Shown: positions 4,609-11,006 of the stretch, in pieces | How positions within the stretch are numbered: the first letter of the stretch is position 1 | Layout of the letters: every line of letters starts with the position of its first letter | Source: a virus | Lineage: Duplodnaviria; Caudoviricetes | Length of the DNA stretch: 56,142 bases | Direction: 5' to 3' (one strand) | IMG/VR virus record: IMGVR_UViG_3300017910_000401 | Coordinates: 1 to 56,142 of that record | Translations under genes and position numbers: made by a program | Notes under the pieces: model-generated | Database searches by the model: none | What the model saw: the letters and a program-made list of their open reading frames with translations, nothing else | Told to the model about the DNA's origin: nothing

Positions 4609-4707
4609 ACCTAGACCAGAACAATCAGGTGAAAATTATTCGCTAGTGAATAATATTTTTTTATCTTGTTCTGGTTTCGATTGAATCTCACAATCTCCTC
4701 AGTAGGT
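4609..4707 (-). ncRNA. Hammerhead ribozyme HH-A (type I), predicted cut GUC between 4614 and 4613
   Basis: ACCUA-CUGAGGA-GAUUG(UGAGAUU)CAAUC-GAAA-CCAGAACAA...UUGUUCUGG-UC/UAGGU; complete core and three stems. Confidence 0.92.
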
Positions 4708-5343
4708 TTAAGTCTCTGTAAAAGTTATAGTTATACCATCACTTACAAGACCAGATACGTTTGCAAAAATACTCATAACAATTGTGTCAATTTCGTACTT
4801 TGCTTCGTAAAGTGTGTCGCATCTAAAATTTTTAGAAAAAGGCACAGCAGTTTCAAAATCATACCAAGCCATTTTGAAATTTGGATAAACGACATAATGT
4901 TTAAGATGATTATTTCTAGCAATAACAAAGTTTCGATAAAGATATTCTTTCCAATCTTTATTTTCTGATACTTTTGCTATTGCCATTTGATTACGAAGAA
5001 ACTCATAAGCTTCAGGAAAATCTTTATAAGCTTTTTGCACTTTGACTTTTGTCTTGTGCCAATCGCTTTCCTTTGGCTCTGCTTTCATTTTGTGATAAAA
5101 ATCTTTAAGACGTTTATTACACTTTTCAAAATCATCCATGAGCATAAGATATCTATGAGTTAGATTACCTTTTGCGATACAAACCTTATATTCAAAATCA
5201 AGTTTATTAAGAATATTTTTAATGGTATGTGACGTTGAATGATAACCGCTTTCATAGTAGCTTCGCATTGAATTAGGACAATTAGGATAACTGTCTAATT
5301 TTGTTTTGCTCATTTCTAAAGCATCTTTCAATAATTTTTCCAT
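4708..5343 (-). CDS. Hypothetical early protein
   Basis: 211 aa with GGAGGT RBS. Confidence 0.75.
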   Translation of the reverse strand: MEKLLKDALEMSKTKLDSYPNCPNSMRSYYESGYHSTSHTIKNILNKLDFEYKVCIAKGNLTHRYLMLMDDFEKCNKRLKDFYHKMKAEPKESDWHKTKVKVQKAYKDFPEAYEFLRNQMAIAKVSENKDWKEYLYRNFVIARNNHLKHYVVYPNFKMAWYDFETAVPFSKNFRCDTLYEAKYEIDTIVMSIFANVSGLVSDGITITFTET

Positions 5344-5552: not shown

Positions 5553-6893
5553 TTAGTCGTAGAATCTAGCAGTATCTACATAGACCACCTCGCCAAAGGC
5601 AAGACGTTCTGAATAACTGCTTTTTTCAGTACAACACCAAAACACAGGAACATCAGGCTCAACGTCTTCAGAAACGTCTCCCCAACCATCGGTAAAATAC
5701 ACTAAGGCTTGAACGTCTTCGGCATCATCAGTGTAGTCATTCAACAGATTAAATACAGGGTCAAACTCTGTACCGCCACCGCCACGAACTACTAACTCTA
5801 ATTCATCGCCTGAAGATAAATCATAGTAATCCCACCATTCCCCCTGTCCATTTTTACGAACAGTTGTGTCACAGTAGCAAACTCTGATTTTTTCAAGACC
5901 GCAGTCTTCCGCCATAGCTTGTATCTCAGTAGCAAATTTATTCAATTCGTATTGAGATACAGAACCTGAAGTATCGATTGCAACCGCTAACTCGCCACCT
6001 TGTGGAGACCTAGTTTTACTCGGCAAATTTAAACCTTGCCATGCAAACCTTTTATTCAGTCTCGACCATGAGTAATCGTTAGCAACAGAAGAACGTAAAA
6101 GGTCATTCAATTGTTCTTTCCAATCAATTGAAGTCTCTTTCAATTCTTCCATTCTGCCACCGCAAGACGAATTAGTACCGCTTCCAACAGCTACTTCTAG
6201 CTTGTCAGATAAGGCTACTGCTCTTTGAATCTCAGTTGAGATTTCTTGAATCTCAGCATCACTCAATGGCTTTCCTTCATCGTCAGTTGCATCCAACACC
6301 TCGCCAATAGTTGAAGGAATAGCATCTAAATCAATCGACTCAGATTCTTCGCCATCTTCGTCAGTTTCTTCATCAGAAATATTTCCTTCACTAGTGTCTG
6401 GTATTTCAGAATCTTGCGAATCATCCTCCATGTCCGCATTCTGATTTTGTTCCTTGACTTGCTCGATTGCTTCTTGCAGGTCATCTTCATTTTTAATTAA
6501 ATGTTGATAAACCTTTTCCGCAGACCAACCCTTGTATTTATGGTCAAGTAAACCGCCAAAAGGCAATTCAAAATTTAAATCCCAATACAAGTAAGCATTG
6601 ATAACGTAATCACAAGCAATATTCCATACTTTAGGATGACGTTTACCACGTCTTAGTGGATGTTCATAAACAACGTGCAATGCTTCGTGAACAAGTACAC
6701 CTCGCAATTCTGCTTCGGTTAATTTATCCACGAATGGCGGATAGTAAAAAATGTTTTTACCATCAGTCGCCATCGTATCGCACTTTGATTCTTCACATTC
6801 AACCAAGTCAAGATTAAGGAGCATACTAGCCATGCCAATATGCCCTTTCATCAATTTTGCTCTAGCCTTAATTATGGTTTCAAGAGTTTTCAT
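5553..6893 (-). CDS. DUF2201-type protein: HExxH metallopeptidase-like N-domain plus VWA domain
   Basis: TMATDG, LVHEALH, WNIACDYVIN, MIDAS motif DTSGS, GGGGTEF, YFTDG. The start is probably the ATG at 6893 (RBS GGAGGT upstream) rather than 6908. Confidence 0.88.
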   Translation of the reverse strand: MKTLETIIKARAKLMKGHIGMASMLLNLDLVECEESKCDTMATDGKNIFYYPPFVDKLTEAELRGVLVHEALHVVYEHPLRRGKRHPKVWNIACDYVINAYLYWDLNFELPFGGLLDHKYKGWSAEKVYQHLIKNEDDLQEAIEQVKEQNQNADMEDDSQDSEIPDTSEGNISDEETDEDGEESESIDLDAIPSTIGEVLDATDDEGKPLSDAEIQEISTEIQRAVALSDKLEVAVGSGTNSSCGGRMEELKETSIDWKEQLNDLLRSSVANDYSWSRLNKRFAWQGLNLPSKTRSPQGGELAVAIDTSGSVSQYELNKFATEIQAMAEDCGLEKIRVCYCDTTVRKNGQGEWWDYYDLSSGDELELVVRGGGGTEFDPVFNLLNDYTDDAEDVQALVYFTDGWGDVSEDVEPDVPVFWCCTEKSSYSERLAFGEVVYVDTARFYD

Positions 6894-7866
6894 CTTTCTT
6901 ACCTCCATAAATTTTGTCGAACAAATTGCCTTTCAATCCATCAATAGATTGTTCAAGACCTTCGGCAACCTGTTCACGTTTTTGCTTTCCTAAATCTGTT
7001 TCGTCTCTAAGAGAATCAACAGAATTTATTGTTGCAAGAACAGAACAAAGACTTTGATGAGCATCAGCAATATTTTTATTATTGCCTAGTACATCCTGAT
7101 TAATAGAAGGTAGCACTTCAACCGCTTGTCTCAATTTCTCGAAACTAGATTTGTTGAAGAATCCGCCCTTCTGCTTGTTGTCAGGGTCATACTCTTTGAG
7201 TTTAGTCGCAACGTGATTAACTTGTTCTAGTAAAGCATCAACAGTAATTGTCATTACGTTTTTGATGTTTTTGTTAGACCTGTTAATCGCATCCGCTTCT
7301 ATTCTCTGCCTTAACTTTTCTGAGACGTTAAGTCTAATATCGTTTCCGAAAGTAGGTACAGGAGTCATTTCAAATTGAAACAAAAACTTTTGTCTTAATT
7401 TGTCAAAATCAATGTAGTCACTTTCTCTGAAAGCATCGCCCAAGTTTCTCTTCGCCATTTCCATTTGTTTAGGATAGCTTCTGAGAAAGCCTTGAACTTC
7501 TTTATCCCAAACAAGAGTAGCTTGGTCTACTTCATACTGAAGTCGTTCAAGATTCGTGTTAGGGCAAAGTCGCCATTCCGATAAAACTTTTCCCTCGTCA
7601 TCAAGGGATGAAGAATCATCCCACGGCAAAGTTAAAGGTTTATAAAAGTCATTCCTAAACTTATCTAAAATTTGGCGAAACTCTTTATTGATATTTCGAC
7701 CAAAGATGTGTTTAGAAACACCTAACAATTTATCGTCTGATACTTTCGTATCTTCCGCTAAACCGCTTCTCAATTTCTTATCGACTTTAATGCCTGATGG
7801 ATGTCTTGCAGTAAGACGAACCAACATACAATTTTCCGATAAGGTATTTGTTAATTTTTTATCCAT
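6880..7866 (-). CDS. Helical partner of the AAA/VWA module (possibly DUF3150-like)
   Basis: 328 aa, TLPWDD...WRLCP motif; lies between the AAA and VWA genes. Confidence 0.55.
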   Translation of the reverse strand: MDKKLTNTLSENCMLVRLTARHPSGIKVDKKLRSGLAEDTKVSDDKLLGVSKHIFGRNINKEFRQILDKFRNDFYKPLTLPWDDSSSLDDEGKVLSEWRLCPNTNLERLQYEVDQATLVWDKEVQGFLRSYPKQMEMAKRNLGDAFRESDYIDFDKLRQKFLFQFEMTPVPTFGNDIRLNVSEKLRQRIEADAINRSNKNIKNVMTITVDALLEQVNHVATKLKEYDPDNKQKGGFFNKSSFEKLRQAVEVLPSINQDVLGNNKNIADAHQSLCSVLATINSVDSLRDETDLGKQKREQVAEGLEQSIDGLKGNLFDKIYGGKKDENS

Positions 7867-7896: not shown

Positions 7897-7952
7897 TATC
7901 TGATTTCACAGTTTTCTGCTCGTCAGTTGGAATCACATTCCAATATCAGATA
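7897..7952 (-). ncRNA. Hammerhead ribozyme HH-C (compact type III), predicted cut AUA between 7944 and 7943
   Basis: UAUCUGAUA/UUGGAA(UGUGA)UUCCAA-CUGACGA-GCAG(AAAA)CUGU-GAAAUCAGAUA. Confidence 0.9.
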
Positions 7953-7958
7953 TTGAAG

Positions 7959-8013
7959 TGAGCAAGATGTAATTTTATTCACTAGCGAATAATATTTTTT
8001 TACATCTCGCCCA
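7959..8013 (-). other. Long RNA hairpin after the AAA gene stop, capped by the recurrent palindrome
   Basis: UGGGCGAGAUGUAA pairs with UUACAUCUUGCUCA (14 bp, two G-U pairs on the minus strand). Confidence 0.7.
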
Positions 8014-8027
8014 ATTCAGTTTTCAAC

Positions 8028-9077
8028 CTAGACTTCTAAGTCTTGATTCCTGATTTTAAAATCGGAATAAGTAGAAGTTTCTGCTAAGTCTGGAATTGCT
8101 CCAATCAAAGAACGAACATAGAAAATCGCAAATTCAGGAGTAGGTAATTTCTCAACATAGTTAAGACTATTTTGAAAATAATTAGCTACATTTGGATTAT
8201 CCATTTCCGATTTAAGAATCGAAACTAATGCACAAACTAGAGCATAAGATTTACCGCCCTCATCAATCATTTCTACGTCTTTGCCTTCACAAATATCTTG
8301 AACATTCGGCAAGTCATTTTTCAAAGACAAAAAGGTAAGAAATTCAATCGAAGCAGTCTCGCCAATATCCCCTTCACAAACTAGTTGCAAAATTTCTTTT
8401 GGCGGATTCGTTTTCAATGTATCAGAAAGACGAACCCAAGAACGTGGACTCGGCTGGGGAGTCGTAATTTTTGGGTCAAAGTCGCAAAGGTACTGAGGCT
8501 CATAACTAATGAATCCCAATACGTCAGGACTTACATCATTCTCAGTCGCCCAAGAAATCCAATCGTTAATGTTTTCATCTACATTCAACATTGTGCATCT
8601 GTCATTGACTTGCGTAGGAATTTTATTTGCTCCTGCTCTGTCAGTTGCCCTGTTTCCTGCACAAACAATTTTCCACCCATCAGGCAAAACGTACTCTCCG
8701 ATTTTTCTTTCATAGAGTAATTGTCCGCACACACACATGACCGAAGAATGAGCCTGAGCAAATTCATCAAAAAATAATATGCCCTCGCCACCAATTGGGA
8801 GATTACCTAAGAAGGCTCTCTTTTGTTGGTTATCTTCGTCTATGTAAGGCAAACCGCCTAAATCAACAGTCTCATAAAGTGACAGTCTAAAATCAATAAA
8901 TCCAAACTGTTTTTTAGTTGGATTGATTGAATTAACAATCTCTCTATCTTCTGCAAATTCTTCGGCTAGTTTCCTAACAATTGCACTTTTTCCAATCCCC
9001 GGTTTCCCTTGCAGGTAAGGGGTATTAGAACCCTTTAATATCGATTTCATCGATAATATAGCTTGACTCGGTTTCAT
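8028..9077 (-). CDS. MoxR/AAA_5-like AAA+ ATPase
   Basis: Walker A GKPGIGKS, Walker B LFFDE, AGNR, PSPRSW. Confidence 0.9.
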   Translation of the reverse strand: MKPSQAILSMKSILKGSNTPYLQGKPGIGKSAIVRKLAEEFAEDREIVNSINPTKKQFGFIDFRLSLYETVDLGGLPYIDEDNQQKRAFLGNLPIGGEGILFFDEFAQAHSSVMCVCGQLLYERKIGEYVLPDGWKIVCAGNRATDRAGANKIPTQVNDRCTMLNVDENINDWISWATENDVSPDVLGFISYEPQYLCDFDPKITTPQPSPRSWVRLSDTLKTNPPKEILQLVCEGDIGETASIEFLTFLSLKNDLPNVQDICEGKDVEMIDEGGKSYALVCALVSILKSEMDNPNVANYFQNSLNYVEKLPTPEFAIFYVRSLIGAIPDLAETSTYSDFKIRNQDLEV

Positions 9078-9211: not shown

Positions 9212-9625
9212 TTCTCTAAGAACTTCTTTTCCTAAAGTTAAATCGTAATGAATCTCCCTCGTTAGTTTAGGACTTTTAGTCTTGTCAATCCTAATCCAAT
9301 TATTAGATTCTTTGTCCTGATAAAGTCTAGGCTCAAAGTAAATATGAGTCTCGTTATCGTTCATTTGATATTTTTCAAATGAGGGAATCCAATCATCAGA
9401 TTCCATTCTCCAATCGATAAAATCATACCTAGTCATTACGTTGTCTTTTTTAATTAATTTAATTAAAGGCAAAATCTCTTTTACCAATTCAAGACTTTCA
9501 CTTGAAGAAATATCCTCAATTACGAACTCAGTTAATCCTTTAGGCTTCCAATAATCATTACCTTCCGCAGGATTTTCTACGTTGTAATTTGCAAATGTCT
9601 GAAAAGTTAATACTAATTTGCTCAT
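9203..9625 (-). CDS. Hypothetical early protein
   Basis: 140 aa, QTFANY...YWKPKG motif, GGAGG RBS. Confidence 0.75.
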   Translation of the reverse strand: MSKLVLTFQTFANYNVENPAEGNDYWKPKGLTEFVIEDISSSESLELVKEILPLIKLIKKDNVMTRYDFIDWRMESDDWIPSFEKYQMNDNETHIYFEPRLYQDKESNNWIRIDKTKSPKLTREIHYDLTLGKEVLRETY

Positions 9626-9680
9626 TTTTTTCTAACCCTCCATTAGTTAGTTATTAAAATAGTTGGCATTATTGCCAACC

Positions 9681-9743
9681 ACCTAGACCAACCCAAATTA
9701 ATTGAGTTGGTTTCGCCTGAATTTCACAGGCTCTTCAGTAGGT
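9681..9743 (-). ncRNA. Hammerhead ribozyme HH-E (canonical type I), predicted cut GUC between 9686 and 9685
   Basis: ACCUA-CUGAAGA-GCCUG(UGAAAUU)CAGGC-GAAA-CCAACUCAA(UUAAU)UUGGGUUGG-UC/UAGGU. Confidence 0.95.
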
Positions 9744-10049
9744 TTAGAATTGTTGAATAACATATCCTCCGCAATCAGTTTCTAAAACTGTGGTCACATC
9801 TTTTATGCTCTCCAATGTTGAATAAATTGTGCTTGTTCCATTGATTGAATAATCAGCAATCAATTCATCAACATTTTTATATTCCGCATAATCACAACAA
9901 ATGGCAATCACATCTAATTCTAAATTTTCCAATTCAGACAAATGCTCGTACAAAGCCTTTAACCCTTCTCTTGAAAAGTTGTTGGCATATTGTCCTGAGT
10001 TTCCAAATTCATTAATGAATTGATTTTCGTTTAAAGTTTTATATATCAT
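9744..10049 (-). CDS. Hypothetical early phage protein
   Basis: 101 aa, NFSREGLKALYE...ELDVIAICCDYAEY motif, GGAGG RBS. Confidence 0.75.
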   Translation of the reverse strand: MIYKTLNENQFINEFGNSGQYANNFSREGLKALYEHLSELENLELDVIAICCDYAEYKNVDELIADYSINGTSTIYSTLESIKDVTTVLETDCGGYVIQQF

Positions 10050-10093
10050 TTTCTATCCTCCACGATAGTTAGATAAGAGACTTAATTGTCTCT

Positions 10094-10159
10094 CCTCCTG
10101 AGTTTCTTGAATCCAATTAAGGATTCTCATTCAGCACGTTAATTCGTGGACTCTGGAGG
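10094..10159 (-). ncRNA. Hammerhead ribozyme HH-F (type III variant with kissing loops), predicted cut GUC between 10149 and 10148
   Basis: CCUCC-A-GAGUC/CACG(AAUUAA)CGUG-CUGAAUGA-GAAUCC(UUAAUU)GGAUUC-AA-GAAACUC-A-GGAGG. Confidence 0.8.
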
Positions 10160-10408
10160 GAGTCTCCCAATCGCAGTAATTATTCCAAACGTCACTACTA
10201 AACCGCAAAAGGGATTACAGGCTTCATGGCTTATGCTCGACCTGTATTGTTCATCGTACCCTGCACGTTGCAGACCTAGAGAACCCTCACTGTTTTAGGA
10301 CAATCGCTGTGAGCCGACCTGCAACAAATGACACTTTAATTCGCATATTGCATGACGAAAGACCCTTAAAAAAGGGAGGGTCAAAAGTCGCTGTTGTCTG
10401 TCCATGCA
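10160..10408 (-). ncRNA. Structured 5' leader or candidate ncRNA of the early operon
   Basis: No credible ORF on this strand; stems UGCAUG/CAUGCA, GACCCU/AGGGUC, GUUGCAGGUC/GGUCUGCAAC (G-U pairs), CUCAC/GUGAG and UACAGG/CCUGUA. Confidence 0.5.
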
Positions 10409-10411
10409 GTA

Positions 10412-10441
10412 ATTATAAACACAAGACACACCAGAACACAA
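10412..10441 (-). promoter_or_regulatory. Candidate early promoter
   Basis: Perfect -10 TATAAT at 10417-10412; weak -35 TTGTGT at 18-nt spacing. Confidence 0.5.
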
Positions 10442-10514
10442 CATCAAGAGCATATTATTTGATAGCACTTTGTGAGCATAGTATTTATTTCACTAGTGAC
10501 AGATAATATCTTGC

Positions 10515-11006
10515 ATGACGCAATCAAAAAAACCTGAACTCAAAATCGTAAAAAAAGAACGTGAACTTACCGCCAAACAAAGAGCCTTTGTACATGAAAT
10601 AGTAAAGGGCAAGTTGGACACTCATATTGACTGCTATATGAAAGTGTATGACGTGGCTAGAACCAAGACAGGAGCAATTCCAAAACACGCCCACGTGGAC
10701 TGCAGTAGGTTAATGAGCAACCCTAAAGTTATCCTAGCAATTAGGAAGGGATTAGAGAGAAAAGAAGCATCAACAGTGGCTTCATCTGTACGAACAAGGA
10801 ACTATGTTCTAGAAAGACTTATGAAGGAGAGCCAAGAAGCAGAATCAGACTCGGCAAGGATATCCGCATTGTCTCTATTAGGTAAAACAGTAAACCTATT
10901 CAGTGACACAGTAGAGATAAAGGACACTAGACCAAGCGAAGACATAGCGGAGGAGATAGAAGAGAAGATACTGAGCCTATTGCAGAAGGAAGAGCCTAAA
11001 ACCTAG
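10515..11006 (+). CDS. terS: Terminase small subunit
   Basis: LTAKQRAFV N-terminus, SRLMSNPKV, RISALSLLGK; lies upstream of terL. Confidence 0.8.
   Translation: MTQSKKPELKIVKKERELTAKQRAFVHEIVKGKLDTHIDCYMKVYDVARTKTGAIPKHAHVDCSRLMSNPKVILAIRKGLERKEASTVASSVRTRNYVLERLMKESQEAESDSARISALSLLGKTVNLFSDTVEIKDTRPSEDIAEEIEEKILSLLQKEEPKT

Follow-up and report, generated by a model that had tools for sequence, protein, structure and literature searches.

What kind of element lies between the small-terminase gene and the leftward operon of a phage, and does the RNA made from it cut itself? The question is raised by IMG/VR record IMGVR_UViG_3300017910_000401 (Duplodnaviria; Caudoviricetes), a whole viral contig of 56,142 nucleotides (nt) with an estimated completeness of 95%, which was analysed over its full length and is called the window below. 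A preliminary description, made from the letters alone, had proposed at 10076-10159 of the window an element named HH-F, a hammerhead variant with Watson-Crick kissing loops, core insertions and a decoy loop. Overall, our analysis indicates that HH-F is probably a functional member of a large subclass, so far uncatalogued, of type III hammerhead-like RNAs that cleave themselves and are carried by marine phages related to pelagiphages, with self-cleavage most likely at 10149/10148 in the leftward transcript. The evidence for this view comes from the anatomy of the element, from its conservation in a family of relatives and from the covariation of its helices.

Anatomy and family of the element

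On reading the sequence, every part named beforehand is found between 10159 and 10076 of the minus strand: loops 1 and 2 of the window copy are exact reverse complements, the core strand has 8 nt and not 7, an AA is inserted before GAAA at 10108-10107, and a hairpin that repeats loop 1 as its own loop follows at 10093-10076. Two further points had not been described, namely an extension of stem III by CCUCC:GGAGG pairing and a competing hairpin GACUC-CCUCCA-GAGUC at 10164-10149, termed P0 here. The features are given below in the order of the transcript, with the evidence for each in brackets; SD stands for Shine-Dalgarno and MFE for minimum free energy.

10149-10164, minus strand: alternative hairpin P0, GACUC-CCUCCA-GAGUC, which buries the 5' strand of stem III and C17 and has CCUCC in its loop (sequence, presence in the family, covariation at position 16.3)
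10164-10160, minus strand: 5' arm of P0, GACUC (sequence)
10155-10159, minus strand: anti-SD CCUCC, predicted to pair with the pseudo-SD at 10098-10094 and to lengthen stem III (MFE structure, energies)
Next to it, minus strand: a single A between CCUCC and GAGU (sequence)
10150-10153, minus strand: 5' strand of stem III, GAGU, with U16.1 at 10150 (sequence, covariation)
10148-10149, minus strand: predicted cleavage site between C17 (10149) and C1.1 (10148) (hammerhead rule for the position relative to the core; GUC in 31 of 31 sequences of alignment A3)
10135-10148, minus strand: stem-loop I, CACG-AAUUAA-CGUG (100% paired, three covarying pairs, 31 sequences)
10127-10134, minus strand: core strand CUGAAUGA (C3 U4 G5 A6, one extra base, G8 A9), 8 nt against the usual 7 (sequence)
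10109-10126, minus strand: stem-loop II, GAAUCC-UUAAUU-GGAUUC (100% paired, one covarying pair)
10107-10108, minus strand: AA insert between C11.1, the last base of stem II, and G12 (invariant in alignments A2 and A3)
10100-10106, minus strand: GAAA at 10106-10103 (G12, A13 and A14, then A15.1 at 10103) and 3' strand of stem III, ACUC, at 10103-10100 (sequence, covariation)
Next to it, minus strand: a single A between ACUC and GGAGG (sequence)
10094-10098, minus strand: pseudo-SD GGAGG, 44 nt from the start codon and not the ribosome site of the gene (limited to the sublineage with the extra hairpin)
10076-10093, minus strand: extra ("decoy") hairpin, AGAGAC-AAUUAA-GUCUCU (four distinct sequences, one compensatory stem change)
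10053-10068, minus strand: SD hairpin, CUAUC-GUGGAG-GAUAG (equivalents with covarying stems in relatives)
10061-10057, minus strand: true SD GGAGG, in and beside the loop of the SD hairpin, 7 nt before the start codon (sequence)
9744-10049, minus strand: downstream gene of 101 amino acids (aa) with AUG at 10049, which opens the leftward operon (without a match in Pfam or PHROG)

The MFE structure of the 116-nt RNA is a three-way junction followed by the extra hairpin, with -37.2 kcal/mol and z = -3.67, and none of 200 shuffled sequences is as stable. Stem III is lengthened in it by the pairing of CCUCC (10159-10155) with GGAGG (10098-10094), and the P0 hairpin competes with stem III for the strand that holds the cleavage site. 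A type III descriptor, consisting of UH, a stem I hairpin with 4 or more base pairs (bp), CUGA-N1-2-GA, a stem II with 4 bp or more, zero to two inserted bases, GAAA and a stem III with 3 bp or more, has two minus-strand matches in the window, with cores at 10134 and 7926, and gives no match in any of 300 first-order Markov random sequences of window length (0/300). The hammerhead architecture of HH-F is not a chance product. In addition, a covariance model built from the terminase-linked alignment described below detects a single window site with 77.3 bits, a score that is high by construction because the window belongs to the seed of the model.

We then present an overall view of the relatives. 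The element stands in an intergenic region of 465 nt, 366 nt from the start of the divergently transcribed small-terminase gene (10515-11006, PHROG 51). The Pelagibacter phages HTVC027P and HTVC023P, as well as some uncultured marine phages, have large terminases 53-57% identical to that of the window, and the relatives, together with the record names, suggest a marine origin. Relatives of the small terminase provide 74 viral-contig loci with upstream sequence. A BLAST search of the 465-nt region against these 74 loci gives 35 matches with 23 distinct sequences, and outside the four close relatives the conserved intergenic stretch in these terminase-linked loci is 10166-10101 only, that is, the hammerhead itself. 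The family pattern matches 52 of 77 loci with 31 distinct sequences, which corresponds to 50 of the 74 terminase-linked loci. Among the remaining 24, ten have another hammerhead variant at the same place, twelve have less than about 510 nt of upstream sequence, and two (L012 and L013, with 2000 nt upstream each) show no family match.

A scan of viral contigs by pattern yields at least 119 stretches. For the pooled set used below, 195 loci gave 172 matches and 106 distinct copies with full flanks among the matches listed. Applied to a single genome of each prokaryote species, this pattern gives two stretches, both of them chance matches without stem I and without GUC, and as far as the collections searched show, the family is limited to viral and metagenomic contigs. 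A scan with a bare 15-mer returned chance matches among the matches listed and added nothing, and BLAST of 9600-10600 against isolated phages gave no match. The equivalent region of HTVC027P, the closest isolate by large terminase, has no hammerhead of the HH-F family. In this equivalent divergent intergenic region (MN698241.1; L322 1280-1400, minus strand) we observed the Rfam Flavobacterium-1 RNA, with 90.2 bits against 58.9, within a GC-rich stretch of about 450 nt. Besides the terminase-linked position, elements of the HH-F type occur after terminators of the rho-independent type, after the ends of open reading frames (ORFs), and in tandem before successive genes. For example, L089, L141 and L150 each carry two hammerheads of the AA type per contig, 300-410 nt apart, and each stands before its own ribosome site.

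The three helices of the junction are supported by covariation. In the 31 distinct terminase-linked sequences of alignment A3 (14 pairs, 434 cells), 95.9% of the cells are paired against 81.8% in shuffles, and the covariation score of 0.367, against 0.116 in shuffles, is reached by none of 500 shuffles, slid controls giving at most 0.091. Six of the 14 pairs changed on both sides. Stems I and II are both 100% paired, with compensatory changes at three pairs of stem I and at one pair of stem II; stem II also has a U-G wobble in 28 of the 31 sequences; and in stem III the third pair is AU:UA = 16:14 with one exception, the fourth pair being formed in 14 of 31. The wobble would be an A-C mismatch on the opposite strand, which shows that the RNA strand is the minus strand. 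Thus three helices meet at one junction, as in hammerheads, and covariation is seen in all three stems. In the subclass, loop 1 is almost always AAUUAA, stem I has 4 bp and stem II has 6 bp, with 11 types of stem I and 12 types of stem II in the 106 distinct copies among the matches listed.

The core of the family is also highly conserved. In alignments A2 and A3, which derive from BLAST so that the core positions were not forced by the search, GUC, CUGA, GA, the G...C pair that closes stem II, AAGAAAC and GAAUUAAC show little or no variation. GUC is present in 31 of 31 sequences of A3, with the A15.1-U16.1 pair and an unpaired H17, and GUU is found in three further copies. Between stems I and II all named residues of the expected strand C3 U4 G5 A6 N7 G8 A9 are present, and in the terminase-linked set C3, U4, G5, A6, G8, A9, G12, A13, A14, the A15.1-U16.1 pair and H17 are invariant or nearly so, the exception being L007 with C at position 4.

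The two core insertions of the preliminary description have quite different standing. The extra base is a tolerated polymorphism: 74 of the 106 distinct copies among the matches listed have a 7-nt core and 32 have an 8-nt core, and the two forms alternate between near-identical neighbours, such as L017 and L020. The core types among the matches listed are CUGAUGA (39), CUGAAGA (29), CUGACGA (5), CCGAAGA (1), CUGAAUGA (28) and CUGAACGA (4). The AA, on the other hand, is family-wide and obligatory before GAAA. A scan for a non-A base before GAAAC gave four stretches and no true member lacking AA, one being a chance match and the other three ordinary AA members whose stem II ends in GGGAAAC and whose cut site is GUU; a further scan, for one A before GAAA, gave no stretch. 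The claim of an unusual core variant can thus be put more strongly than it was made, as the AA is invariant across a large family. In a canonical hammerhead G12, A13 and A14 directly follow the last pair of stem II. Here AA always separates C11.1 from the invariant GAAA, and on this ground the element is classed as a hammerhead variant rather than a canonical hammerhead.

Two sister variants were observed in this phage group, at loci L008, L009, L022, L023, L024, L030, L054, L055, L059 and L074. Variant A, in related phages, shares loop 1 AAUUAA with HH-F; its stem I has 5 bp, its site is GUA, its junction is standard, and an AU bulge interrupts stem II two pairs up. Variant B, at the position of HH-F, has a 7-bp stem I, a mini stem II A-GC-GAAA-GC-A, and the same polymorphism of 7- and 8-nt cores. 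The AU bulge and the mini stem II suggest that irregularities at the base of stem II are a theme of the group.

As to known classes, HH-F shares with type III hammerheads (RF00008, Hammerhead_3) the open stem III, the loop-capped stems I and II, the strand order of GUC, stem I, CUGA-N-GA, stem II, GAAA and stem III, the A15.1-U16.1 pair and H17, but differs by the invariant C11.1-AA-G12, the optional base after A6, the fixed AAUUAA of loop 1, and the absence of a model score at E <= 10. Judged from its sequence, it is a type III variant that departs from the class in two respects, the contiguity of G12 with stem II and the Rfam score. RAGATH-1 hammerheads (RF03152) are type I, with stem I open and a standard GAAA junction. 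This family, too, is a phage-associated hammerhead variant, and its Rfam consensus likewise has a hairpin showing AGGAG, but HH-F gives no match to it. Rare natural core insertions, such as A6a, U13a and insertions near C3 in halophiles, have been described in phage and metagenome hammerheads (Perreault 2011, PMC3088659). The extra base here (CUGA-A-UGA) is at or beside the A6a position of that study. The text of section 8 of PMC3088659 describes no insertion between stem II and G12; moreover, the variants reported there are rare individuals, whereas the insert of HH-F defines a whole family. The invariant AA beside G12 may mark a new core architecture of the hammerhead. An obligatory 2-nt insert beside the general base G12 is relevant to ribozyme structure and mechanism and to the annotation of pelagiphage-like genomes.

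Competing helices and the Shine-Dalgarno sequence

It is of great interest to ask which other helix competes with the ribozyme. P0, in which an arm of the GAC type pairs with the 5' strand of stem III and C17, is found with at least 4 bp in 30 of the 31 terminase-linked sequences and in 90 of the 106 pooled distinct copies among the matches listed. A stricter definition (ending at C17, loop of at most 9 nt) retains it in 63 of 90 flank combinations, with CUCC in the loop of all but one of the 63. Position 16.3 takes part in both P0 and stem III, and the triplets that it forms with its two partners are (U,A,U) in 42 cases and (A,U,A) in 19, with two exceptions. This covariation with both partners shows that both of the mutually exclusive helices are under selection. 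By this comparison of sequences, the conserved competing element is the P0 hairpin upstream, not the extra hairpin downstream.

The loop of P0 is related to the ribosome site. CUCC is present upstream in 30 of the 31 terminase-linked sequences, and in 76 of the 106 pooled copies among the matches listed it precedes the cut site by at most 20 nt. An SD sequence follows downstream in 31 of 31 and, within 30 nt, in 102 of the 106 among the matches listed. Usually it is displayed by the loop of a small hairpin whose stem covaries, with 5-11 nt between it and the start codon. The loops of P0 and of the SD hairpin have consensus sequences, CCUCCAA and UUGGAGG, that are reverse complements of each other and occur together in 74 of 104 flank combinations, a match that extends two bases beyond the need of pairing with the 3' end of 16S rRNA. 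Sister variant B, at the same genomic position, retains the same P0/anti-SD and SD hairpins. In L194, a GC-richer viral contig, the SD GAGGAGG lies inside a 10-bp stem III, where it is paired with CCUCCUC upstream of the cut site. These two cases, and the SD hairpin that also comes after the type III candidate of the window at 7951-7898, speak for a link between the cassette and cleavage. For the window copy, the predicted partner of the anti-SD is the pseudo-SD rather than the true SD.

The calculated energies, which cover secondary structure only because nearest-neighbour values ignore tertiary contacts, fit the pattern of a near-balanced two-state element. For the window, the hammerhead with a 4-bp stem III is predicted at -25.7 kcal/mol, the P0 state at -29.6 kcal/mol, and the hammerhead extended by CCUCC:GGAGG pairing with the pseudo-SD at -35.9 kcal/mol. 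In constrained ensembles of 69 members the difference of hammerhead minus P0 has a median of +1.1 kcal/mol; 34 members are within 2 kcal/mol, and beyond this margin seven favour the hammerhead and 28 favour P0. With differences of -2.3 and -2.4, the window and L169 belong to the members that lean most towards the hammerhead. In unconstrained MFE structures of 105 members the SD is paired with the 5' fragment in 53 and unpaired in 41.

How such an RNA would act, that is, its catalysis, its order of folding and its effect on translation or mRNA stability, we infer as follows. The leftward transcript would fold into the three-helix hammerhead junction and cut between C10149 and C10148, which would part the upstream leader from an mRNA that starts with stem-loop I and has its ribosome-binding site about 90 nt further. 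Pairing of the anti-SD with an SD-like sequence would lengthen stem III and shift the RNA from the P0 state to the active fold. In the window copy the inserted pseudo-SD and the extra hairpin would assume this lengthening role; with the pseudo-SD extending stem III, the true SD (10061-10057) would be left unmasked and the ribozyme biased towards "on". After the cut, the 5' fragment would refold to P0 and the mRNA to the SD hairpin, and the fragments would separate irreversibly, so that a loop would present the ribosome site on an mRNA beginning with a 5'-OH and stem-loop I. It is possible, though we propose it tentatively, that the cassette of P0 (anti-SD), hammerhead and SD hairpin is a natural self-cleaving, one-way translational ON switch, in which the uncut anti-SD:SD helix completes stem III and arms the ribozyme.

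In engineered devices (Ogawa/Maeda, Wieland/Hartig, about 2008) the ribosome site is reportedly masked in an extended ribozyme stem and released by cleavage. Such hammerhead/ribosome-site switches, and glmS, are alike to the proposal in that a self-cleaving RNA sits in a bacterial 5' untranslated region (UTR) and its cut alters expression; the former, however, are artificial, and glmS has a different fold in which cleavage leads to mRNA decay. According to a 2019 review glmS is the only well-understood bacterial case, and the roles of hammerheads in bacteria and phages are largely elusive (PMC6765202). In the literature searched, which includes few subscription papers, no description was found of the HH-F variant, of pelagiphage hammerheads, or of a natural hammerhead with conserved anti-SD/SD. 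Were the ON-switch reading true, phage hammerheads would gain a defined function. The family offers more than 100 natural variants, with a fixed place directly before the ribosome site and two competing helices backed by covariation, and the coupling of leader removal to exposure of the ribosome site would be a concrete function open to cleavage and reporter assays.

Several observations weigh against a working ribozyme or against its coupling to the ribosome site. As for the fold, stem III has 2-5 bp in the 31 terminase-linked relatives and 2-10 bp in the pooled 106 among the matches listed, and in unconstrained folding it appears in the MFE structure of only 14 of 105 members. As for the core, an insertion after A6 gave low activity in another natural hammerhead (PMC3088659), and no tested precedent was found in the literature searched for a 2-nt insert beside G12, the general base. 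As for the models, six Rfam hammerhead models (RF00008, RF00163, RF02275, RF02276, RF02277 and RF03152) give no HH-F match at E <= 10 with 9800-10500 (701 nt) or with the 81 nt alone, the Rfam hammerhead models give none at E <= 1 at the equivalent sites of 12 relatives, and Rfam 15 at gathering thresholds gives no match in the whole window, from which it also follows that a large marine-phage subclass is overlooked by the standard models. As for the sampling, the search pattern of the pooled set forced the invariance of loop 1, CUGA..GAG and CAAGAAAC there, and the family sequences are related, so that counts are not independent events. As for the anti-SD, its run with the SD is 6.84 against 6.77 with partners shuffled, a value reached by 275 of 1000 shuffles; partner-specific anti-SD/SD covariation was not found, the pairing resting on the consensus, with isolated compensatory cases only (UCUCCGU with ACGGAGG in L083, UCUCC with GGAGA in L064). 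Among the 106 copies of the matches listed, 30 have no CUCC upstream and 16 have no P0, the copies without CUCC being located after terminator-like hairpins or ORF ends. Finally, the sole RNA run, seawater metatranscriptome X1, which contains 0.04 of the sampled words, covers the downstream gene by a single 217-nt contig over 9805-10021 with none on the ribozyme, and so gives no evidence either way.

Alternative explanations

A dead or very slow hammerhead-derived fold, kept as a structure of the 5' UTR (a protein-binding site, an mRNA stabiliser or an anti-SD/SD translational operator), is in our view rather unlikely. Such a fold would agree with the two departures of the core from the canonical hammerhead, with the lowered activity of the tested natural variant inserted after A6 (PMC3088659), with the failure of every hammerhead model to score HH-F, and with the conservation of sequence in loop 1 and much of stem II, as would be expected for a site of protein or tertiary contact. 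However, a purely structural junction would hardly account for the catalytic residues, invariant or nearly so in the terminase-linked set; most copies (74 of 106 among the matches listed) have the canonical core strand of 7 nt; and hammerhead-like elements with standard cores lie in the same operon, at 9763-9681, 7951-7898 and 4707-4609.

The preliminary description had itself suggested another reading, which may be stated as follows: the ribozyme needs a 6-bp kiss between loops 1 and 2, and the downstream AAUUAA hairpin captures loop 2 and so switches cleavage off or on. We consider it unlikely. Its starting point is sound, as the two loops are perfectly complementary in the window and the extra loop is identical to loop 1, and loop-loop pseudoknots are a known tertiary contact of hammerheads, present in about 40% of them. 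In type III hammerheads such a pseudoknot accompanies a 2-bp difference in stem length (PMC3088659). In HH-F, with stems of 4 and 6 bp, a Watson-Crick contact between the loops of stems I and II is likewise possible. The family shows a modest tendency in this direction: 37 loop 2 types have a mean complementarity of 3.30 to loop 1 against 2.92 for shuffled loops (7 of 2000 shuffles reach 3.30), and seven types have a run of at least 5 against 2.5 expected (12 of 2000 shuffles reach 7). However, among the 31 terminase-linked sequences the longest Watson-Crick run between the two loops reaches 6 in the window copy only; it amounts to 5 in eight of the others, to 4 in three and to 3 in 19. Unlike in the pseudoknotted hammerheads, the full 6-bp match is confined to the window lineage, and most family members have 3-5 nt or none. 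Moreover, loop 2 is a GCAA or UUUC tetraloop in some members (pooled copies among the matches listed), which shows that the kiss is not required family-wide, and in most relatives stem II can be extended to 8 bp, leaving a loop of 3-4 nt. A loop kiss is therefore plausible in the window copy and some relatives, but it is not the defining contact of the family; the claim of kissing loops stands for the copy in which it was made and fails as a family rule.

The decoy half of the same reading depends on the extra hairpin. Scans for it give two viral stretches and seven metagenome stretches, five of the latter being true, and together these contain four distinct sequences:

Window: loop 2 UUAAUU, extra loop AAUUAA, pairing 6/6
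L313 and L316: loop 2 UAAUUAU, extra loop AAUUAA, pairing 5
L317: loop 2 UUAAUU, extra loop AAUCAA, a central mismatch
L169, L314 and L319: loop 2 UUUAUU, extra loop AAUAAA, pairing 6/6, with loop 1 still AAUUAA and now mismatched

The hairpin itself is real, as shown by the compensatory stem change from GAGAC/GUCUC to GAAAC/GUUUC in the L169 group. It is always accompanied by the pseudo-SD (AGGAG) directly after stem III, and the module of hammerhead, pseudo-SD and hairpin stands intact in front of three different genes and follows two different upstream contexts, which indicates that it is probably functional and can be counted in favour of a decoy. A leader peptide after the pseudo-SD was considered and rejected, the short frame not being conserved in L169. 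As a switch of cleavage, the competing loop finds weak and inconsistent support among the four sequences: the L169 group is in favour, since L169, L314 and L319 keep six pairs of six between loop 2 and the extra loop while loop 1 gains a central mismatch; L317 contradicts it by the mismatch of its extra loop with loop 2; and two are neutral. The small number of distinct sequences also speaks against a decoy, and so does the geometry. In hammerheads stems II and III are stacked end to end. The extra hairpin directly follows a stem III of about 10 bp, and by analogy this stacking would put it far from loop 2 in the active fold. In addition, the 3' arm of the hairpin has an alternative long-range partner upstream of P0.

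An element at the level of DNA or a terminator beside the terminase genes (a packaging site, an origin or an operator) that looks like a hammerhead fits the divergent intergenic location, 366 nt from the small-terminase start, but is highly improbable given the compensatory changes that preserve RNA helices, the U-G wobble in 28 of 31 sequences that would be an A-C mismatch on the other strand, the presence of the same element in other genomic contexts (after terminators, after ORFs and in tandem), and the lack of a U-run after it.

Operon context and neighbouring elements

The leftward operon consists of the 101-aa gene, a 140-aa gene, a MoxR-like AAA ATPase (8028-9077, PHROG 1297), a 328-aa gene, a DUF2201 metallopeptidase/VWA protein (5553-6908; Pfam PF13203 and PF09967) and further genes. 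A search with the 101-aa protein finds only two loci, of which one is identical and the other differs in its upstream region. Three further hammerhead-like elements are present in the operon:

9681-9763, minus strand: type I hammerhead-like element just after the stop codon of the 101-aa gene (sub-threshold RAGATH-1)
7898-7951, minus strand: type III hammerhead candidate with a canonical core (AUCUGAU-A, 7-bp stem I, CUGACGA, 4-bp stem II with AAAA loop, GAAA-UCAGAU)
4609-4707, minus strand: type I hammerhead-like element starting from the stop codon of ORF 4708-5343 (stem I ACCUA/UAGGU, CUGAGGA, stem II GAUUG/CAAUC)

The first is the sole hammerhead-like Rfam signal in the window at E <= 1, with 35.5 bits against a gathering threshold of 56.3 and E = 0.031. 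Sub-threshold RAGATH-1 matches one gene downstream of an HH-F-type element were also observed in L011, L015 and L017. The second, with its predicted cut at 7944/7943, stands in the gap that separates the ATPase gene from the next one; after it come a hairpin that displays GGAGG (7878-7874) and an ATG at 7866. The third has a long stem III with an insert and GUC at 4616-4614, and is unreported by Rfam at E <= 1. An operon punctuated by hammerheads fits earlier reports, in which several hammerheads flank genes in prophage regions (PMC3088659) and hammerheads are suggested to process polycistronic mRNAs (PMC6765202).

Two minus-strand sites, 7971-8001 and 4632-4662, share a motif of about 30 nt that can form a hairpin and in which UAUUAUUC-N-CUAG-N-GAAUAA comes after an A-run. 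One copy lies just upstream of the 7951 hammerhead, and the other lies inside stem III of the 4707 hammerhead.

Upstream of HH-F, the 251 nt of the window were considered as a structured RNA freed by the cut, which is unsupported (z = 0.22, with 112 of 200 shuffles as stable), and nhmmer with this stretch detects close relatives only. A terminator-like hairpin with a weak U-tail is present at 10363-10376 (minus strand), between the terminase gene and the ribozyme. In relatives, recurrent motifs GCGUACC...hairpin...GGCGU and GUGAGAG...ACUCAYAA were observed within the 150-250 nt upstream of the ribozyme in L011, L015, L017, L025, L049, L060, L083, L163 and others, and may represent a conserved leader RNA.

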